Of a DNA stretch of 31,042 bases, positions 1 to 9,144 are shown in pieces; position 1 is the stretch's first letter, and the number at the start of each line of letters is the position of its first letter. The notes under the pieces were generated by a model. It did not search any database. It was not told the DNA's origin and saw nothing but the letters and a program-made list of their open reading frames with translations. Source of the stretch: Campylobacterales bacterium (lineage in GTDB: Bacteria > Campylobacterota > Campylobacteria > Campylobacterales > QNZT01); the NCBI GenBank assembly GCA_027080605.1, contig JALWRO010000021.1, positions 1-31,042 on the forward strand. The letters are read 5' to 3'. A program made the position numbers and the translations under genes.

Positions 1-8
1 GTATTGAG

Positions 9-1097
9 TTGATTCCCCTGTTTGACAAATTGCTTTGTTACAGATCGGTAACTCCGGATGATGACGGAGCATTTGATTTTATTGAAGGTTATCTTGAAGA
101 TTTTGAAACGATCTTTTTTGAGAAAGAGGGGGTGAAAAACCTCTTCATGTATAAAAAGTTCGGAGAGGGGGATCACCTCTGTTTCGCAGGGCATATCGAT
201 GTTGTACCGCCCGGAGACGGATGGGAAAGTGATCCGTTTGAACCGGTGCATAAAAAGGGTAAAATTTATGCCCGCGGTGCACAGGATATGAAGAGCGGCG
301 TGGCAGCGTTTCTCAAAGCATGTAAAGATACAAAAGAGTTTAACGGTACGCTCTCGGTGTTGCTGACCAGTGACGAAGAGGGTGATGCGACGTACGGTAC
401 GATCGAGATGATCAAAAAACTCGAATCGATGGATTTCCTGCCCGATTATGTCATTGTTGCGGAACCGACGTGTGAAGAGAGGTTTGGCGATGCCGTGAAG
501 ATCGGACGGAGAGGTTCAATCAACGGTGTTATCGAAAAGATCGGTATGCAGGGGCATGCCGCTTACCCGGAAAAGGCAAAAAATCCTATCCACATCGTTG
601 CACAGGTTTTACCGCATATGGCGGGGGTCAATCTCGACGAAGGGGATGAGAACTTTGCACCGAGTCAGTTTGTCATTACCGATATTCGTGCAGGTATGGA
701 GGTGACCAACGTTACACCCGGAAAACTGAAGATGATGTTCAACGTGCGAAACTCCACCAAAACGACCATCGAAGATGTGGAAGCGTTTGTAGACAAATAT
801 TTTCATGAAATGGACTATACGCTGACACTGAGCCAAAGTGCCAAACCGTTTGTCACCAACCGAAACTCCAAAGTGGTACAGAAGATGCTTGCTTCCATCA
901 AAGATGTAACCGGGATCGATACGAAACTCTCTACTGCCGGCGGGACAAGTGATGCGCGTTTTTTCGGGGAGTACGGGATCGATACGGTGGAGTTCGGTGT
1001 CATTAACGATACAATCCATGCACCGAACGAACGCACATCTGAAGCGGAGGTGGAAGCACTCTACGGCGTGTTTTCCAGAATAATCGAGACGTTTTAA
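9..1097 (+). CDS. dapE: Succinyl-diaminopimelate desuccinylase (M20 family); true start may lie just upstream of the window
   Basis: Motifs FAGHIDVVP, RGAQDMKSG, DEEG, EPT, GRRGS, GHAAYP, GGTSDARF, IHAPNE. The frame stays open to the left edge (ATT GAG before the TTG at 9). Confidence 0.95.
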   Translation: MIPLFDKLLCYRSVTPDDDGAFDFIEGYLEDFETIFFEKEGVKNLFMYKKFGEGDHLCFAGHIDVVPPGDGWESDPFEPVHKKGKIYARGAQDMKSGVAAFLKACKDTKEFNGTLSVLLTSDEEGDATYGTIEMIKKLESMDFLPDYVIVAEPTCEERFGDAVKIGRRGSINGVIEKIGMQGHAAYPEKAKNPIHIVAQVLPHMAGVNLDEGDENFAPSQFVITDIRAGMEVTNVTPGKLKMMFNVRNSTKTTIEDVEAFVDKYFHEMDYTLTLSQSAKPFVTNRNSKVVQKMLASIKDVTGIDTKLSTAGGTSDARFFGEYGIDTVEFGVINDTIHAPNERTSEAEVEALYGVFSRIIETF

Positions 1098-1109
1098 AAA
1101 GGATAGCCT

Positions 1110-2360
1110 GTGATTAAAAGAGAACTCTTCTTCGATGAAGAAGCGACAGATGAGGTGGTGACAGCGGCGTATGATGCGCTCAGAGCGGAGATGCAAAGCG
1201 GCAAAATAGGGTATTATCTGCTGCCGGAATCGGATATGCTGACAAAGATCGAAGTTTTTATCGACGATTACGATTTTGATGCAAAGGGTATCAAAAATAT
1301 CGTGGTGATCGGTATAGGCGGTTCCTCTCTGGGTGCCAAAGCAGTTGATTCGCTGCTTGCACATACACCGTCACGCAATGAGAGAAAACTGCTTTTTCTG
1401 GAAAATGTGGATCCGGTAGAGACTGAAAATATTTTGAAAGAGCTTGTGTATGAAGAGAGCTTTTTCATCATGATTTCCAAATCGGGTTCGACGATAGAGA
1501 CCACTTCGCATGTCAAACAGATTGTCGCCCGTTTCGATGCGCCGGTGGAGAGTGAGAGGTTCAGAGAGCATTTCGCGTTTATTACCGATGCGGGATCGCC
1601 GCTGGATGCATTTGGCAAAGCGTGTCAGGTGCCGACGTTTCATATTCCGCACAATGTCGGTGGGCGTTTTTCCGTCCTCTCCGCAGTTGGTTTGCTGCCG
1701 CTGACACTGCTGGGGTACGACACCAGAGCACTGCTTGCCGGAGCAAAAGCACTGAAAGACTCTTTCTTTGACCACAGTGAAGATTTGCTGGTACAAAAAG
1801 CGTATTACTATGCAACCCACAGCAAAATGTTTCCTATTAACGTGCTTTTCTCCTATGGCAGTGCTTTTAAAGAATTTAACGCATGGTATGTCCAGCTTTG
1901 GGGTGAGTCGCTCGGGAAAATCGACAAAGATGGGAACCATGTCGGCATGACACCGGTCGGGATTATCGGTTCGGTGGATCAGCACTCCTTTTTGCAGCTT
2001 CTGATCGAAGGTCCGCGTGACAAAACGGTGACGATGATCAAGATAGTCGATTTTCAGATGCCGACGGTCATTCCCAATGTTTCCCTGCCGCATCTTGAAA
2101 AGACAGACTATATCAATGGACACACATTTAATGAATTGATCAATGCGCAGTGTGATGCGACGATGGAGAGTATCCTGCAGCAGGGGATCAGTGTGGACAA
2201 AATAGAGATCGGCAAACTCGACGAGTACAATACCGGATATATGATTATGTACTATGAACTGCTTACCTCACTTTGCGGGCACTTTCTGGGTGTCAATACC
2301 TACGACCAGCCGGGTGTGGAACTGGGCAAGCAGATTTTGAAAGGGAAATTTGCCGGCTGA
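1110..2360 (+). CDS. pgi: Glucose-6-phosphate isomerase
   Basis: GIGGSSLG, SKSGSTIET, VGGRFSVLS, QLWGESLGK, DQHSFLQL, YDQPGVELGK; GTG start. Confidence 0.96.
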   Translation: MIKRELFFDEEATDEVVTAAYDALRAEMQSGKIGYYLLPESDMLTKIEVFIDDYDFDAKGIKNIVVIGIGGSSLGAKAVDSLLAHTPSRNERKLLFLENVDPVETENILKELVYEESFFIMISKSGSTIETTSHVKQIVARFDAPVESERFREHFAFITDAGSPLDAFGKACQVPTFHIPHNVGGRFSVLSAVGLLPLTLLGYDTRALLAGAKALKDSFFDHSEDLLVQKAYYYATHSKMFPINVLFSYGSAFKEFNAWYVQLWGESLGKIDKDGNHVGMTPVGIIGSVDQHSFLQLLIEGPRDKTVTMIKIVDFQMPTVIPNVSLPHLEKTDYINGHTFNELINAQCDATMESILQQGISVDKIEIGKLDEYNTGYMIMYYELLTSLCGHFLGVNTYDQPGVELGKQILKGKFAG

Positions 2361-3105
2361 TCGTTTGATTATCTTCACCGACCTCGACGGAAGTCTGCTC
2401 GACCACGGAGACTACAGCTTCTCCGGGGCGCTTCCTGTGCTCTCTTATCTTCGAAAAGAGCATATTCCTCTCATCTATACTACCAGCAAAACACGTCAGG
2501 AGTGCCTTCTTTTGCAAAAAGCGATGCAGATCAGTGCGCCGTTTATTGTCGAAAACGGTGCGTGCGTCTGTTACCCCGACGGGGAAGAGGTGTTGCTGGG
2601 ACGTCCTCATGAAGAGATTGCCGCTTTTATCGACAAATATAAGGGGCGTTTCGGTATCCGGGCGTTTAAAGATATGTCTGTCGAAGAGATTGCCCGGCAT
2701 ACCGGTTTTTCGAAAGAGCAGGCGATACTGGCAAAAGCAAGAGACTTCAGCGAACCCTTTTTGATCGACGAAAAGATGGATATTGCCGGATTGACCGCTG
2801 TTGCAGAAAAAGAGGGGTTTAAGATTCTTCGTGGAGGGCGTTTTTACCACTGTGTCGGTGCGGGGCAGGACAAAGGTAAAGCGGTGCAAAAAGTGCTGGA
2901 GCGATACCCCGGTTACACCAGTATTGCCCTGGGGGACAACTTCAACGATATTGCAATGCTGGAAGTGGTGGATATTCCCATCCTCATTCCCCGGTACGGG
3001 GGCGACTATATTCCGCTTCGTTTGCCAAATCTCATCAAAGCGCCTCATGAAGGAAGCAGAGGCTGGAACGAAGCGCTCGAAAAGGTGTTGTGGCATGAGT
3101 CATAA
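2350..3105 (+). CDS. gpgP: HAD-superfamily mannosyl/glucosyl-3-phosphoglycerate phosphatase (MpgP/GpgP family)
   Basis: FTDLDGSLLD, TTSKT, PFIVENGA, ARDFSEPF, GGRFYH, ALGDNFND. Context next to gpgS favours a glucosyl substrate. TTG start overlaps the pgi stop. Confidence 0.85.
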   Translation: MPADRLIIFTDLDGSLLDHGDYSFSGALPVLSYLRKEHIPLIYTTSKTRQECLLLQKAMQISAPFIVENGACVCYPDGEEVLLGRPHEEIAAFIDKYKGRFGIRAFKDMSVEEIARHTGFSKEQAILAKARDFSEPFLIDEKMDIAGLTAVAEKEGFKILRGGRFYHCVGAGQDKGKAVQKVLERYPGYTSIALGDNFNDIAMLEVVDIPILIPRYGGDYIPLRLPNLIKAPHEGSRGWNEALEKVLWHES

Positions 3106-4303
3106 AAAGCGTGCAATAGCGCTTTTTCAAAGCGGTGTGGAGGCGGTACAGCCGGAAAATCTGCATTATGATCTGGAGGGGTTTGCTGAAAAAGAGATCA
3201 CGTTGCTGGGTTCCGGAAAAGCGGTAGCGGGTATGGCAAAGGCGTTGCTGGCGCAGGGCGTGAAAGTGAAAAAGAGTTTTCTGGTGAGTCATGTTTATGA
3301 AACGGTTCCCGGAGTGGAGATGTTTGTCTCTTCACATCCGGTACCCTCATCCCAAAGTGTGGAAGCGGCAGAAAAGCTCATGAAGATTATGGCAGAACTG
3401 AAAGCGGAGGAGCAGTTTGTCTATCTGCTTTCCGGAGGCAGTTCCGCGCTGGTTGAAAAGCCGATTGCACCGGTGACACTGGAAGAGATGCGCGTTTTGA
3501 CGACCATGTTGTTACAAAGCGGTGCGTCGATCGGAGAACTCAACACGGTTCGCAAACACCTCTCCATGATCAAAGGCGGCAGACTGGGGGCAATGACAAA
3601 GGCAAAGGGTAAAGTGTTTGTCATCAGCGATGTGATCGGCGACGACTTGGAAGCGATCGGATCGGCACCGCTTTACTGCGACAGCAGCAGTAGTGAAGAT
3701 GCCAAAGAGGTTTTGGTACAATACGGTTTATGGGGACGTGTGGCAGAGTCTGTTCGAAATGTGATTACATCGTCTCTTCATGAAACACCCAAAATGCCAA
3801 ATCCGGCGATTGTGCATGAAGTGGTGGCATCGAACAGGAGAGCGCTGGAAGCGGTAGCGCGTGAAGCGCAGCGGATGGGGTACGAAGCAGAGATTGTCAC
3901 TGACCGTATGCAGGGGGATGTTCGGGAAGTTGCCGGTAAGATTGCCCGATATGCAGAACTGCCGGTAAAAGAGAAGCCGCGCTGCTTTATCTTCGGCGGG
4001 GAAACGACGGTGGAAGTCAAAGGTAACGGCAAAGGCGGTCGCAATCAGGAACTCGCCCTTTGGGTCCTCAAAGCGATTCAAGAGAAAGGTATCTGTACTT
4101 TTCTGAGTGCCGGAACGGATGGTAAAGACGGTGTGGGTGATGCAGCAGGCGCGGTGGTGGAGAGCGGCGATCTTCATGAAGATGTGGATTACTATTTGCA
4201 AAACAACGACTCTTACCGCTACCATCAAAAGTACGGTACGCTGATTCGCACGGGTGCAAGCGGTACCAATGTCATGGATATCATGATCCTGATAAAGGAG
4301 TAA
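3095..4303 (+). CDS. Glycerate kinase, MOFRL/DUF4147 class (glycerate 2-kinase type)
   Basis: GSGKA, LSGGSSAL, RKHLSMIKGGRL, SDVIGDDL, GGETTV, GKGGRNQELAL, GTDGKDG, GTNVMD. Start moved to the ATG at 3095 (MSHKK); the upstream part of the 500-aa track ORF overlaps gpgP. Confidence 0.88.
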   Translation: MSHKKRAIALFQSGVEAVQPENLHYDLEGFAEKEITLLGSGKAVAGMAKALLAQGVKVKKSFLVSHVYETVPGVEMFVSSHPVPSSQSVEAAEKLMKIMAELKAEEQFVYLLSGGSSALVEKPIAPVTLEEMRVLTTMLLQSGASIGELNTVRKHLSMIKGGRLGAMTKAKGKVFVISDVIGDDLEAIGSAPLYCDSSSSEDAKEVLVQYGLWGRVAESVRNVITSSLHETPKMPNPAIVHEVVASNRRALEAVAREAQRMGYEAEIVTDRMQGDVREVAGKIARYAELPVKEKPRCFIFGGETTVEVKGNGKGGRNQELALWVLKAIQEKGICTFLSAGTDGKDGVGDAAGAVVESGDLHEDVDYYLQNNDSYRYHQKYGTLIRTGASGTNVMDIMILIKE

Positions 4304-4304
4304 T

Positions 4305-5513
4305 ATGTCAGATTTTTTTCAAAACGGTGTTATTACGACTATCCCGAAACTGGGAAGCCGTACGATCGAAGATATGGAAGCGGAACTGGTCAGGCTCTCA
4401 AAACGACGCAATATGGTGCTGATTTTACCTGCACTGTACAGTGAGTTTGAGTCGGATGCGATGCGGCGAATTGTGGATGAGCTGAAAAAGGTGACCTATC
4501 TCTACCGCATTGTGCTGGGACTGGATAAGGCGAATGCATCTGAATTTGAAAAAGTCAAAGCGATTATGTCGGAAATCCCTACCCCGGTCGATGTTATATG
4601 GAATGACGGTCCGCGTATCAAAGCGCTGAAAGAGGAGCTCTCCGCAGCGGGGTTTCAGTCGATCAACATGCGGGGAAAAGGGCTCAATGTCTGGATGATG
4701 CTGGGGTATATTCTCTCCGACCAGGATGCCTACGCCATTGCCGTGCATGACTGCGACATCGTGAACTATACACGGGAGGTCCCCGCGCGGCTGCTTTATC
4801 CGATTGTCCATCCTGGGTTTGATTTTGAGTTTAACAAGGGGTATTACGCCCGGGTGACAGATCGGGTACACGGGCGTGCGACACGGCTCTTTTACACGCC
4901 GCTGCTCAAGTCACTGGAGCGGATTTTTGGAAAAAACCGCTATCTGGACTATATGGGCAGTTTCCGGTATGCCCTTTCGGGCGAGTTTGCATTTATCCGC
5001 TCGCTGGCACGGGGTATCCGTATCTCTCCGACATGGGGACTGGAGGTTTCGACTTTGAGCGAAGTCTATCACAACACTTCCAAAAAGAGAATTTGTCAGT
5101 CGGAGATTATGGAGAGTTATGAGCATAAGCATCAAAATCTAGGCGTTGAAGCGGCAGGTGGCGTCGCGAAGATGACCAAGGAGATTGCCGAGACAATTTT
5201 TCGTATCATGAGCCAGAGCGGTACGACATTTTCAAGCGCCAATTTCAATGCGCTTCTGACGACCTATTTTGAAGAGGCGCAGCGGGCGATTGCGCAGTAC
5301 AGTGTTATTTCCGAAGTCAACGGTTTGGTCTATGACCGTCAAAAAGAGTTGCAGGCGATCAAAGAATTCACCAACTCACTGCGTGCGGCAAACGAAGAGT
5401 TCAACCGTGATCCTATGGGTGTGCCGTCTCTCTCCGCCTGGACGGCGGTACGGTCGGTATTGCCGCATTTTACGTACAAATTCAATGAAGCGGTCAGACT
5501 GGATAATGCCTGA
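4305..5513 (+). CDS. gpgS: Glucosyl-3-phosphoglycerate synthase-like glycosyltransferase (about 400-aa type also seen in marine cyanobacteria and proteobacteria)
   Basis: N-terminal DFFQNGVITT, WNDGPR, GKGLNVW, HDCDI, KGYYARV, GRATRLF, FRYALSGEF, WGLEVSTLSE, YEHKHQ; flanked by a phosphatase and a GH13_18 gene. Confidence 0.82.
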   Translation: MSDFFQNGVITTIPKLGSRTIEDMEAELVRLSKRRNMVLILPALYSEFESDAMRRIVDELKKVTYLYRIVLGLDKANASEFEKVKAIMSEIPTPVDVIWNDGPRIKALKEELSAAGFQSINMRGKGLNVWMMLGYILSDQDAYAIAVHDCDIVNYTREVPARLLYPIVHPGFDFEFNKGYYARVTDRVHGRATRLFYTPLLKSLERIFGKNRYLDYMGSFRYALSGEFAFIRSLARGIRISPTWGLEVSTLSEVYHNTSKKRICQSEIMESYEHKHQNLGVEAAGGVAKMTKEIAETIFRIMSQSGTTFSSANFNALLTTYFEEAQRAIAQYSVISEVNGLVYDRQKELQAIKEFTNSLRAANEEFNRDPMGVPSLSAWTAVRSVLPHFTYKFNEAVRLDNA

Positions 5514-7227
5514 AAAGATGGATGCGATTTACACACGTCTGGTGATGCTTTACGGAGAAGTACATGCCCGGCAGGCGATGGAGGGTATAGAGAAGCTTAT
5601 TGCCGCATACCGGGAAAAGATCACGCCGCAACCCTACAGACTGACACAGAAAGATATGATTTTGATTACCTACGGGGATCAGGTCGTGCGGATCGACGAA
5701 GAACCGCTTGCAACGTTGAAACATTTTCTCGACGAGCATACGGAAGATGTGATTAACACGGTGCATATCCTCCCATTTTATCCCTATTCGTCGGATGACG
5801 GATTTTCGGTGATCGATTATAAAGATGTGTCGCCCCGGATGGGATCGTGGGAAAATATCGAAGCGCTGGCGGAGTCGTACCGGTTGATGTTCGACGGGGT
5901 AATCAACCACATTTCCCAGTACTCCTACTGGTTCAAAAGCTTTCTGGCGGGTGATCCTGCGTACAAAGATTTTTTTATCGATATGGATCCCTCCACCGAC
6001 CTCTCCAGAGTGGTCAGACCGCGTACGCTGCCGCTGCTTCATGAATACCGTGACGAAACGGGGAAAATACGTTATATCTGGACGACATTCAGTAAAGACC
6101 AGGTTGATTTGAACTATAAAAATTATCGGGTGTTGCTGGCGGTGCTCGACGCGCTGCTTTTTTATGTGGAAAAGGGGGCGAAGATTATCCGGCTGGATGC
6201 GATTGCGTTTGTCTGGAAAGAGCCGGGGACGAGTTGTATCCATCTGCCGCAGACACATGAGCTGATTCAGTTGATGCGGGAAGTATTGCACCGGGTATCA
6301 CCGGAGTTGATGATTATTACCGAAACCAATGTGCCTCATGAAGAGAATATCTCCTATTTCGGCAACGGGGAGAATGAAGCGCAGATGGTCTATAACTTCG
6401 CGCTGCCGCCGCTTTTGGCACATACGATGCTCAAAGAGGATACCACCGTACTCAAAGAGTGGGCGCAGACGCTTTCCCTGCCGAGTGATAAAGTCTGTTT
6501 CTTTAACTTTACCGCCAGCCATGACGGATGCGGGCTTCGACCTGTCAGCGAACTGCTTTCGGAGTGCGAGATCGAAGATTTGGTCACGGTTGTCAAAAAG
6601 AGGGGTGGATATGTTTCGTACCGTGCAACGGGTGACGGTGGAAAGAGTCCCTATGAATTAAACGCCAGTTACATCGACATCGTCTCCGATCCAGAAGAGC
6701 CGAATGAGATACGTGCGAAGAAGATGTTGCTGACACAGGCGGTAGCGCTGGCGATGCCCGGTGTGCCGGGAATTTACTTTCATTCGCTGGTAGGATCGGT
6801 AAGTGATTTCAACGCGGTAAAAAGAACGGCGGTGTACCGCTCGATCAACCGGGAAAAACTGAATTTTGATATATTGTCGGAAGAGTTGAACAGACCCGGA
6901 AATCTCAGAGCGATGATTTTCCGAAGTTACAAAAAGCTGCTCTCTATCCGTCGCAATGAATCGGTGTTTGATCCGTATGCCTCTTTTTCATTTCCGGATT
7001 TCGGTAAAGAGGTATTTGCTATACACAGGAAAAATAAAAAGAGCAGTGAAAGTCTGCTGGCACTTTATAATTTTTCAAAAAATCCGATATTATGCAATAT
7101 ATCAAATTTTATCACCCACCCTGCGGAAGAACTTATAAGCAGTGAACGGGTGGAAAATGGTATGATAACAGTTGCACCCTATGCAATACAATGGATAAAA
7201 CAGAAGGAAGATCATGAAAATAAGTAA
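5506..7227 (+). CDS. GH13_18 sucrose-phosphorylase-family enzyme, probably glucosylglycerate phosphorylase
   Basis: LITYGD, VHILPFYPYSSDDGFSVIDY, INHIS, RLDAIAFVWK, GTSCIHL, TETNVPH, ASHDG, YELN. Start placed at ATG 5506 (alternative 5518), overlapping the gpgS stop. Confidence 0.85.
   Translation: MPEKMDAIYTRLVMLYGEVHARQAMEGIEKLIAAYREKITPQPYRLTQKDMILITYGDQVVRIDEEPLATLKHFLDEHTEDVINTVHILPFYPYSSDDGFSVIDYKDVSPRMGSWENIEALAESYRLMFDGVINHISQYSYWFKSFLAGDPAYKDFFIDMDPSTDLSRVVRPRTLPLLHEYRDETGKIRYIWTTFSKDQVDLNYKNYRVLLAVLDALLFYVEKGAKIIRLDAIAFVWKEPGTSCIHLPQTHELIQLMREVLHRVSPELMIITETNVPHEENISYFGNGENEAQMVYNFALPPLLAHTMLKEDTTVLKEWAQTLSLPSDKVCFFNFTASHDGCGLRPVSELLSECEIEDLVTVVKKRGGYVSYRATGDGGKSPYELNASYIDIVSDPEEPNEIRAKKMLLTQAVALAMPGVPGIYFHSLVGSVSDFNAVKRTAVYRSINREKLNFDILSEELNRPGNLRAMIFRSYKKLLSIRRNESVFDPYASFSFPDFGKEVFAIHRKNKKSSESLLALYNFSKNPILCNISNFITHPAEELISSERVENGMITVAPYAIQWIKQKEDHENK
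7158..7166 (+). promoter_or_regulatory. Putative extended -10 box (TGGTATGAT) for galU, inside the phosphorylase 3' end
   Basis: Near-match to TGnTATAAT 47 nt upstream of the galU ATG, within an AT-rich tract. Confidence 0.45.
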
Positions 7228-8044
7228 ATGTCTGTTTCCTGCCGCAGGGTATGGAACACGCTTTTTGCCTGTGACCAAGGCTATGCCCAAAGAGATGCTG
7301 CCGATTTTGACCAAACCGCTGATTCAGTACGGTGTGGAAGAGGCGGTGGAAGCCGGACTCGATACGATGGCTGTGATTACGGGACGGGGAAAAAGAGCGA
7401 TCGAAGATCATTTTGATATTTCGTACGAATTGGAGCATCAGATCAAGGGAAGTTCTAAAGAGCATTTGCTCAGAGAGATTCGTATGCTGATTGCAAAATG
7501 TACGTTTACTTACACCCGGCAAATAGAGATGAAGGGACTCGGTGATGCGATTTTAAAAGGCAAAGTGCTGATCGGACAGGAACCTTTTGCGGTTATTCTG
7601 GCAGATGATCTTTGTATCAATGAAGAGGGTAAAGGGGTATTGACACAGATGATCAATCTCTATAAAAGGTATAAATGTTCTATCGTAGCGATTATGGAAG
7701 TGCCGATGGAAGAGACATACAAGTATGGGGTGATTGATGGGAAAGAGCTGGAAGAGGGGGTGTTTATTGTCTCTAAAATGGTGGAGAAACCGGAGCCGTC
7801 CGAAGCACCTTCCAACCTGGCGATTATCGGTCGCTATATTCTGACACCGGATATTTTCGATATTATCAAATCGACTAAACCGGGTAAAAACGGTGAAATA
7901 CAGATTACCGATGCGTTGATGACAATGGCGCAGAAAGGGATGGTTTTAGCGTGTAAATTTAAAGGAAAACGTTTTGACTGCGGTAGTGTGGACGGGTATG
8001 TCGAAGCGACGAACTATCTGTATAATCTGGAAAAAGAGAAGTAA
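7214..8044 (+). CDS. galU: UTP--glucose-1-phosphate uridylyltransferase
   Basis: FPAAGYGTRFLPVTKAMPKEMLP, GLGDAI, LADD, VEKP, GRYIL, GEIQITDA, FDCGS. Confidence 0.97.
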   Translation: MKISKCLFPAAGYGTRFLPVTKAMPKEMLPILTKPLIQYGVEEAVEAGLDTMAVITGRGKRAIEDHFDISYELEHQIKGSSKEHLLREIRMLIAKCTFTYTRQIEMKGLGDAILKGKVLIGQEPFAVILADDLCINEEGKGVLTQMINLYKRYKCSIVAIMEVPMEETYKYGVIDGKELEEGVFIVSKMVEKPEPSEAPSNLAIIGRYILTPDIFDIIKSTKPGKNGEIQITDALMTMAQKGMVLACKFKGKRFDCGSVDGYVEATNYLYNLEKEK

Positions 8045-8052
8045 AAAAGAGG

Positions 8053-8085
8053 GAAAAGCACAGCAGTCAAGCCGCTGTGCTTTTC
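8053..8085. terminator. Bidirectional intrinsic terminator between galU and the convergent OMP gene
   Basis: Perfect 12-bp inverted repeat GAAAAGCACAGC / GCTGTGCTTTTC with a 9-nt loop; A/T runs on both sides. Confidence 0.85.
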
Positions 8086-8095
8086 GTTGCAGGGA

Positions 8096-8644
8096 TTAAA
8101 ACTTATATTCGGCACCGAATGTAAGCTGATTGATATCATCTTCAAACTTGGTAAAGTTGGTGAAGATTTTATAGTTTTCGGTCAAATTATATGCCGCGCC
8201 GATACCGCCGCTCAGGGCAAGATCTTTTCTGATCGTTTTACTGTCCATCAATGCGTCGTTGTTGGTGTGGATATTGAGTGTCGATTTGATACTTTCGTAC
8301 ACTACACCGAGCCTCGGTTTGATGCTCAGTTTATTGATTTTCCAGATGTATGTACCGTACAGACCCAGTGACCAAAAGTCGACATCATGTGTCTTGCCGT
8401 TAAATTTCGCTTCCGGTTTGCTCAACCCGACGGTACCTTCCAGCTCAATTCCCATATCGCTGTAGATATCTTTTCCGGCATTCAGTACGAGTGCTGTTCC
8501 GGTGTCAAATTTATCATTTTTGACATCCTGCATCGCAAACCCGACGCCTACACGATCGAGGTACGATTCTGATGACACATCGCCTGCGGACAGCGCTGTG
8601 CTTACGAGTAGACCTGCAATGCATGTGGCTAATAATCTATTCAT
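8096..8644 (-). CDS. Small outer-membrane beta-barrel protein (OmpA-like membrane domain/porin family)
   Basis: Signal peptide (MNRLLATCIAGLLVSTALSA), amphipathic strands (GIELEG, GLYGTY, GGIGAAYNL), C-terminal GAEYKF; AAGGAG RBS at 8651-8656 on the - strand. Confidence 0.8.
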   Translation of the reverse strand: MNRLLATCIAGLLVSTALSAGDVSSESYLDRVGVGFAMQDVKNDKFDTGTALVLNAGKDIYSDMGIELEGTVGLSKPEAKFNGKTHDVDFWSLGLYGTYIWKINKLSIKPRLGVVYESIKSTLNIHTNNDALMDSKTIRKDLALSGGIGAAYNLTENYKIFTNFTKFEDDINQLTFGAEYKF

Positions 8645-8670
8645 AACAAACTCCTTAGTTCTTAATACAT

Positions 8671-8676
8671 ATTATA
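8671..8676 (-). promoter_or_regulatory. Putative -10 box (TATAAT) for the OMP gene
   Basis: ATTATA on + strand, about 27 nt upstream of the start codon. Confidence 0.45.
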
Positions 8677-8717
8677 TAGAATAAACTTTAAAATAAAATT
8701 TATGTTTATATATATTT

Positions 8718-8726
8718 TGTTATAAT
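8718..8726 (+). promoter_or_regulatory. Extended -10 box (TGTTATAAT) for ridA
   Basis: Exact TGnTATAAT 25 nt upstream of the ATG. Confidence 0.7.
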
Positions 8727-8751
8727 CCTGAAAAATCGATTTCAAAGGATA

Positions 8752-9144
8752 ATGATGACACGGGTGAGTACAGACAATGCACCGGCAGCAATAGGACCTT
8801 ATTCTCAGGCGGTCAAGGCAAATGGATTTATCTATACATCGGGTCAGATTCCGCTGACACCGGATGGCGAATTAGTGACAGGAGATATCCGTGATCAGAC
8901 CAGACAGGTTTTGACTAACCTGCGCGCTGTACTCGCGGTAGCGGGGAGCTCTATGGAAAATGTTGTCAAAACGACTATCTATTTGACCAATATGGATGAT
9001 TTTATCGCTGTCAATACAGTTTATGCAGAGTTTTTCGAAAATTCTTTCCCTGCCAGAAGTACAGTAGCGGTAAAATCATTGCCCAGAAATGTGAATATAG
9101 AGATCGATGTTGTTGCTTTGGACATGGGATTTGCACACCTTTAA
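8752..9144 (+). CDS. ridA: RidA/YjgF family enamine/imine deaminase
   Basis: APAAIGPYSQA, SGQIP, VKTTIYL, PARSTV, IEIDVVA; start at 8752 or 8755. Confidence 0.92.
   Translation: MMTRVSTDNAPAAIGPYSQAVKANGFIYTSGQIPLTPDGELVTGDIRDQTRQVLTNLRAVLAVAGSSMENVVKTTIYLTNMDDFIAVNTVYAEFFENSFPARSTVAVKSLPRNVNIEIDVVALDMGFAHL

Follow-up and report, generated by a model that had tools for sequence, protein, structure and literature searches.

Why should a bacterium keep, in one and the same operon, genes that appear to make a small glycoside and genes that appear to break it down again? This question is raised by contig JALWRO010000021.1 of a Campylobacterales bacterium, where four genes related to the metabolism of 2-O-alpha-D-glucosylglycerate (GG) lie between pgi and galU. 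Hereafter, the window is the whole stretch of DNA that was analysed (positions 1-31,042 of this contig, 31,042 nucleotides). The answer that we consider probable is that the operon provides a complete route for the synthesis of the compatible solute GG, which would serve as an osmolyte, together with an energy-conserving route for its reclamation. All the operon genes are on the + strand, and the region is organized as follows:

3-1097, + strand: dapE (succinyl-diaminopimelate desuccinylase), its 5' end cut by the window; NF009557, 429 bits versus an equivalog cut-off of 284.
1110-2360, + strand: pgi (glucose-6-phosphate isomerase), GTG start; NF003016, 559.1 bits versus an equivalog cut-off of 487; Pfam PGI.
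2350-3105, + strand: gpgP-like gene for a predicted HAD-IIB phosphatase (mannosyl/glucosyl-3-phosphoglycerate phosphatase family), TTG start; TIGR01486, 211.4 bits.
3095-4303, + strand: glyK, predicted MOFRL-type (class II) glycerate kinase, ATG start; Pfam DUF4147 and MOFRL.
4305-5513, + strand: gpgS, predicted glucosyl-3-phosphoglycerate synthase of the long (about 400 amino acids) Methanococcoides type, ATG start; match to NF040724.
5506-7227, + strand: ggaP, predicted GH13_18 glucosylglycerate phosphorylase (YcjM type, EC 2.4.1.352), ATG start; 44% identity to YcjM.
7214-8044, + strand: galU (UTP-glucose-1-phosphate uridylyltransferase), ATG start; TIGR01099, 396.9 bits versus an equivalog cut-off of 326.8.
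8053-8085, no strand: terminator-like hairpin (14-bp stem) that separates galU from the convergent outer-membrane-protein gene.
8096-8644, - strand: outer-membrane-protein gene, convergent to galU.

From pgi to galU, the first two junctions are overlaps of 11 nt each, the third is a 1-nt gap, and the last two are overlaps of 8 and 14 nt; dapE ends 12 nt upstream of pgi. Of the five starts that follow pgi, four carry a clear purine run of the Shine-Dalgarno type, located 5-10 nt upstream (AAGGGA before 2350, AAGGTG before 3095, AAGGAG before 4305 and GAAGGAAG before 7214), the ribosome-binding site before the ggaP start at 5506 being weak. An alternative phosphatase start, the TTG at 2365, would give a 4-nt gap instead of the first 11-nt overlap; a ribosome-binding site is found only at 2350. 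The hairpin at 8053-8085 is the strongest terminator-like hairpin within positions 1-8800 and probably serves both directions, as a bidirectional terminator. Because of the overlapping or abutting junctions, the ribosome-binding sites and the single strong hairpin after galU, these genes are regarded as one transcription unit. The functional unit is at least 1110-8044, with the four-gene module at 2350-7227, and dapE may belong to the transcription unit as its first gene. The original prediction for this DNA had named the four module genes and both flanking genes in the same way, and profile, structure and signature evidence bears these names out. It had also given the same overlaps and the same 1-nt gap, and the single terminator with which it ended the operon corresponds to the strong 14-bp-stem hairpin.

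With respect to the identity of the enzymes, the GH13 protein is 44% identical over 541 amino acids (E 8e-174) to Escherichia coli YcjM, which has been characterised as a glucosylglycerate phosphorylase. Strict glucosylglycerate phosphorylases (GGaP) carry a (T/S)ETN motif and a glutamate in loop A at the position where other clades have glutamine (PMC7178133). In the protein of the window, TETN, a motif that is identical in YcjM, is found at residues 272-275. Glu384, in the sequence PYELN, falls in the alignment where sucrose phosphorylase 7qqj and glucosylglycerol phosphorylase 7xdq have YQ; YcjM has PYEIN at loop A. The catalytic residues D231 (nucleophile, in RLDA), E273 (acid/base, in TETN) and D340 (transition-state residue, in SHDG) are invariant in the alignment of relatives. 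Among 71 related phosphorylases from other loci, TETN is present in all of them and PYE(L/I)N in 70. By these signatures, the GH13 enzyme is most likely a glucosylglycerate phosphorylase. Amylosucrase was considered as another identity of this enzyme and was ruled out on the grounds of its weaker matches compared with those of GH13_18, the GGaP signatures and the identity to YcjM.

GGaP genes are often accompanied by genes for glycerate kinase, GpgS and GpgP, an association from which their specificity was deduced (PMC7178133, citing Franceus 2017; PMC11009771), and in many producers GGaP is the only known GG sink (PMC7178133). The phosphorylase described here resembles those of Meiothermus silvanus, Spirochaeta thermophila and E. 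coli (YcjM) in belonging to GH13_18, in its size class (about 560-575 amino acids), in TETN and in the loop-A glutamate, and it resembles the published loci in being accompanied by the three partner genes. The difference is that here the four genes, together with pgi and galU, are in one translationally coupled operon whose order is fixed across the phylum. In E. coli, in contrast, the phosphorylase gene stands alone, beside sugar ABC transporter genes. E. coli has GGaP without making GG, and many organisms not regarded as GG accumulators carry a GGaP gene (PMC7178133), so that the module could be thought to salvage GG from the environment, for instance what cyanobacteria release, a function that has been suggested for E. 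coli ycjM. However, GpgS and GpgP are present and conserved in the loci studied here, and there is no transporter in or beside the operon. In the window flanks neither a transporter nor a regulator gene was seen adjoining the operon, and the genes downstream are housekeeping ones (RidA, L21, AhpC, metK, ndk, plsX, fabH and recO). We consider a salvage function extremely improbable.

The synthase aligns with the NF040724 profile (GpgS_Meth), which derives from the enzyme of Methanococcoides, from residue 3 to 400, against profile positions 2-398 of 402 (E 1.8e-99). In a sequence search of the Protein Data Bank (PDB) with GpgS nothing was found, and the link to solved GpgS structures came only through fold comparison. 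An AlphaFold2 model obtained from 36 homologues (pLDDT 91.9) has the GT-A fold of sugar-phosphoglycerate synthases with the DXD metal/nucleotide-sugar site. When this model was compared with the PDB by means of Foldseek, the first 33 matches were all mycobacterial GpgS, with TM-scores of about 0.7-0.75 (target-normalised), and mannosyl-3-phosphoglycerate synthase (MpgS) from Rubrobacter appeared only from rank 34. The HDCD motif (residues 148-151) has an invariant D149, and its H148 and D151 are nearly so. The best structural match is the mycobacterial GT81 GpgS (Rv1208; 4Y6N, 5JQX, 7PDO; Foldseek E 3e-12, TM-score 0.75, target-normalised), with which the window protein shares the GT-A fold with the DXD motif and would share the reaction. 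These enzymes differ in that their sequence identity is only about 20% and in that the window GpgS is about 100 amino acids longer, with a helical C-terminal extension; the mycobacterial partner phosphatase, moreover, belongs to a family different from that of the operon phosphatase. The two-step GpgS/GpgP systems of Methanococcoides burtonii and Persephonella marina have the same synthase family and a phosphatase of the same MPGP-family type, although the window synthase is a distant branch with respect to the Methanococcoides type (333 versus 700 bits). In the databases, these synthases are labelled only "glycosyl transferase" by NCBI and glucosyl-3-phosphoglycerate synthase by JGI.

The phosphatase scores above the family cut-off of TIGR01486 (211.4 versus 164.75 bits) and shows HAD motifs I and IV (DLDGS, residue 11; GDNFND, residue 195). 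Its relatives in the PDB are E. coli YedP (1xvi), Thermus MpgP (3ztw) and Pyrococcus MpgP (1wzc), and it misses the cut-off of the equivalog models of MpgP itself (187 versus 353). Since the TIGR01486 family acts on both mannosyl- and glucosyl-3-phosphoglycerate, the synthase is under its equivalog cut-off and Rubrobacter MpgS is among the structural matches, the product might be another glycosyl-glycerate, such as mannosylglycerate, made by a synthase that prefers GDP-mannose. This is very improbable: the signatures in the co-transcribed phosphorylase are those of strict glucosylglycerate phosphorylases, the last gene of the operon is galU, whose product makes UDP-glucose, and the structural matches to GpgS precede those to MpgS in the order given above.

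The glycerate kinase is formed by the Pfam domains DUF4147 (203 bits) and MOFRL (111 bits). Its closest solved relative is Thermotoga maritima TM1585 (PDB 2b8n), a glycerate 2-kinase which it matches along its full length (E 2.6e-75) and with which it shares the DUF4147 plus MOFRL architecture. From this homology, glyK probably encodes a glycerate 2-kinase whose product is 2-phosphoglycerate.

The GG cycle that we propose would operate as follows. Pgi, together with a phosphoglucomutase encoded elsewhere, would supply glucose-1-phosphate, which GalU would convert with UTP into UDP-glucose. GpgS would then transfer glucose from an NDP-glucose to 3-phosphoglycerate, the donor probably being UDP-glucose because galU is the conserved last gene, and the HAD-IIB phosphatase would release GG from the resulting glucosyl-3-phosphoglycerate. 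In the opposite branch, GGaP would reversibly convert GG and phosphate into glucose-1-phosphate and D-glycerate, and the MOFRL kinase would use ATP to return glycerate to glycolysis, most likely as 2-phosphoglycerate. With this kinase product, the regeneration of 3-phosphoglycerate would need phosphoglycerate mutase. A full turn of the loop would cost one UTP and one ATP. GG would act as a nitrogen-free anionic osmolyte whose pool could be quickly drawn down. Since both directions are translationally coupled on one transcript, net flux would be controlled after transcription, by substrate levels, phosphate or allostery. The host genome has five loci of the PGM/PMM family, and one of its contigs (G000:C253:3730-11714) bears the genes of a glycogen synthase and of an alpha-glucan phosphorylase, so that the glucose-1-phosphate for GG could come from glycogen.

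A Myxococcota protein from a metagenome-assembled genome (MAG), MEE2903252.1 (991 amino acids), has a complete GpgS (residues 1-401) fused to a GGaP with RLDA, TETN, SHDG and PYEIN, so that the committing enzyme of GG synthesis and the GG-degrading enzyme form a single chain. This fusion, in which the GGaP signatures are intact, indicates that the pairing of GpgS and GGaP is functional rather than incidental. The fusion would be odd for a purely antagonistic pair, and a different direction of the phosphorylase has to be considered, in which GGaP would run in synthesis, from glucose-1-phosphate and glycerate to GG, as a route without sugar nucleotide, the kinase merely setting the level of glycerate. 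GGaP works reversibly; its Km for D-glycerate is 1-5 mM, and its specific activity in synthesis is high (PMC11009771). However, a glycerate kinase gene is beside the phosphorylase gene in almost every locus, which fits the removal of glycerate, and the operon encodes no source of free glycerate. High cellular phosphate also favours phosphorolysis. A synthetic role of GGaP is decidedly unlikely, and the reclamation role assigned to it above is preferred.

The distribution of the module was followed through its GpgS, which was searched for in 24 further genomes of the window's family and in 400 good genomes sampled evenly over the phylum. In the family, 20 of the 24 genomes and six of the seven other genera have it. 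In the 400-genome sample it was present in five further families of Campylobacterota, at 9-33% each, and no match was obtained in the two largest families sampled (0/118 and 0/158). Named carriers, whose GpgS is 60-65% identical to that of the window, include Arcobacter iocasae, Poseidonibacter ostreae, Halarcobacter, Sulfurimonadaceae, Sulfurovum, Thiovulum and also Sulfurimonas sp. HSL3-7, and, outside the phylum, the marine flavobacteria Flavicella and Wenyingzhuangia. The four-gene order, mostly with galU behind it, is seen in named Arcobacteraceae, Sulfurimonadaceae and Sulfurovaceae.

The gene order is nearly constant, counting only loci whose sequence is long enough to judge. The gpgP-glyK pair is upstream of gpgS in 19 of 20 loci of the window's family, in 43 of 44 of other Campylobacterota and in all six of Bacteroidota; ggaP is downstream of gpgS in 20/20, 46/47 and 5/5 loci, respectively. 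The next gene after ggaP is galU in 18 of 20 loci of the family and in 40 of 46 of other Campylobacterota, and in none of the five of Bacteroidota. The dapE-pgi adjacency is kept in those loci of the window's family that extend far enough upstream. With the same order in dozens of genomes, the arrangement of the module is far from chance, and judging from this conservation the unit is apparently selected as a whole. The genes after galU vary: phosphoglucomutase in P. ostreae, a Kef-type Na+/H+ exchanger with a TrkA_N domain in a Sulfurovum MAG, zwf-pgl in A. iocasae, and zwf in a Sulfurimonadaceae MAG (locus coordinates L048:9862-11496, L059:9940-11562, L044:9832-11977 and L040:9827-11290).

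Some loci depart from this pattern. In Candidatus Thiovulum imperiosus (locus L092), GpgS is on a long branch and the other module genes were not detected within 6 kb on either side. In-frame stops were observed within the tblastn matches of gpgP in two loci (L015 and L051) and of ggaP in two others (L067 and L080); they could mean that the gene is a pseudogene, that the MAG has a frameshift or that the alignment overruns the gene end.

The position of the module between pgi and galU raises the question of its origin, since it had been suggested in the original prediction that it was inserted there and that a phylogeny might identify a donor. When the GpgS tree is rooted on its closest outside relatives (SH-aLRT supports are given), the sequences of Campylobacterota, together with nested flavobacteria, form one clade (98) within which the window's family is monophyletic (99). 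The nearest sequences outside this clade are about 43% identical, and the two that bear an organism name are from Myxococcota. The GGaP tree agrees in outline, the window's family being within a clade with a support of 96. A foreign donor is thus not visible. Recent horizontal acquisition was ruled out by the ordinary GC content of the module (0.49-0.52, within the range of the window), its housekeeping flanks and the grouping of the family in the GpgS and GGaP trees. The module is old in the lineage and has mostly been inherited vertically. Transfer in the opposite direction is suggested by the flavobacterial GpgS clade (99), because it is nested inside an Arcobacteraceae-rich group, itself weakly supported (88): the module may have passed from Campylobacterota to Flavobacteriaceae. 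Six loci of Flavobacteriaceae/Bacteroidota (L038, L043, L045, L052, L060 and L073) have the same four-gene module without galU.

As for the site itself, four module-free genomes belonging to three other families of the order have galU followed by pgi. Several Arcobacteraceae have the order module-galU-pgi, and the window's family has dapE-pgi-module-galU. Thus, the module is directly upstream of galU wherever galU adjoins it, while the position of pgi varies between families. Two species of the window's own genus lack the module (L093, on G010:C4, and L094, on G003:C2); in their MAGs, which are 99% and 84% complete, dapE-pgi-galU are contiguous, with spacers of 11 and 50 nt. These two species are better read as clean deletions than as the empty ancestral site, because pgi followed by galU is otherwise found only with the module in between, and because the module occupies this place in six other genera of the family. 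Therefore, with the galU-pgi order of other families and the apparent deletions in congeners, the suggested insertion between pgi and galU is supported only in part.

The host is a marine bacterium of hydrothermal vents. Its assembly, a MAG of 2.45 Mb in 357 contigs, is 95% complete, and the records closest to it are MAGs that carry the label Sulfurospirillum sp. or Campylobacterales bacterium. DNA of the operon is present in hydrothermal-vent metagenomes from several studies. Among RNA data sets, none was listed as containing the operon or gpgS by itself. All the named carriers whose habitat can be placed are presumably marine, judging from record titles. The osmolyte role of GG is proposed because of this marine habitat and because OtsA, BCCT and OpuAC were not found in the host MAG.

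GG could instead be mainly a soluble buffer of carbon and energy, or a precursor of glycoconjugates, carbon being cycled between glycogen or UDP-glucose and GG. The operon lies amid genes of sugar-phosphate metabolism (pgi and galU here, and in other families zwf-pgl or pgm behind galU), and there are glycogen genes in the host genome. Moreover, Synechococcus turns compatible solutes towards storage polymers, and mycobacteria use GG for energy after nitrogen starvation (PMC11009771). However, the marine character of the named carriers, as judged from their titles, and the lack of matches in the two largest families sampled do not favour this function, and the operon has no second glycosyltransferase for the extension of GG into a glycoconjugate. 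A role of this kind is unlikely.

Although osmoprotection by a GG cycle is the interpretation that we favour, several points weigh against it. The score of the synthase is under the NF040724 equivalog cut-off (333 versus 700 bits), so that by the NCBI rule it is a homologue and not an equivalog of the Methanococcoides-type family, and the donor sugar is not fixed by the sequence. The same is true of the kinase, whose regiospecificity the sequence does not fix either because its scores are below the cut-offs of the NCBIfam glycerate 2-kinase equivalogs (237 versus 550 and 211 versus 670). The presence of synthesis and breakdown on one transcript would be wasteful if it were not regulated, and the window shows no regulator. 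The module is dispensable, as two species of the same genus live without it. The alternative osmolyte systems searched for in the host MAG were only a handful. Finally, in the searchable literature there is no assayed enzyme of this clade and no solute measured in any member of the Campylobacterota. It may be speculated further, as a tentative and rather doubtful extension, that GG is the main organic osmolyte of marine and vent Campylobacterota, which are a dominant group of chemolithoautotrophs, and that the conserved co-translation of synthase and phosphorylase, enzymes fused in the Myxococcota protein, reflects a substrate cycle run on purpose, its net direction being switched post-translationally for very fast osmotic adjustment in the steep and fluctuating gradients of vents.

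That GGaP genes go together with those for glycerate kinase, GpgS and GpgP has been published before (PMC7178133). The searchable literature has no report linking GG to Campylobacterota, Arcobacter or Sulfurimonas; papers matching GG with Epsilonproteobacteria or Campylobacter seemed irrelevant, as judged mostly by title and term counts, and osmolytes do not come up in two papers on genomes of vent Sulfurospirillum. This agrees with the original prediction, according to which GG was not known to have been characterised in Campylobacterota. The prediction had also noted that novelty would be lower if the cluster were described and widespread. It is widespread, as the counts in the window's family and in five further families indicate, and the association of its genes has been published. 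Within the limits of the searchable literature, the pathway in this phylum and its near-fixed five-gene form ending in galU appear to be unreported, and so do the presence/absence polymorphism within one genus and the export to Flavobacteriaceae.

With regard to its significance, the operon is a clean natural case for studying the in vivo role of GGaP and the avoidance of futile cycling, since translation is coupled and there are cultured carriers, such as Arcobacter iocasae KX21116, Poseidonibacter ostreae SJOD-M-6 and Sulfurimonas sp. HSL3-7. GGaP enzymes from mesophilic marine bacteria are also candidate biocatalysts for the production of GG. At hydrothermal vents and at sulfidic interfaces in the sea, Campylobacterota are the dominant primary producers, and nothing was found in the searchable literature on the osmotic balance or the compatible-solute chemistry of these bacteria. 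A conserved pathway for a nitrogen-free anionic solute would fill this gap for vent Campylobacterota, and GG would add a metabolite that these bacteria can pass to hosts and grazers.

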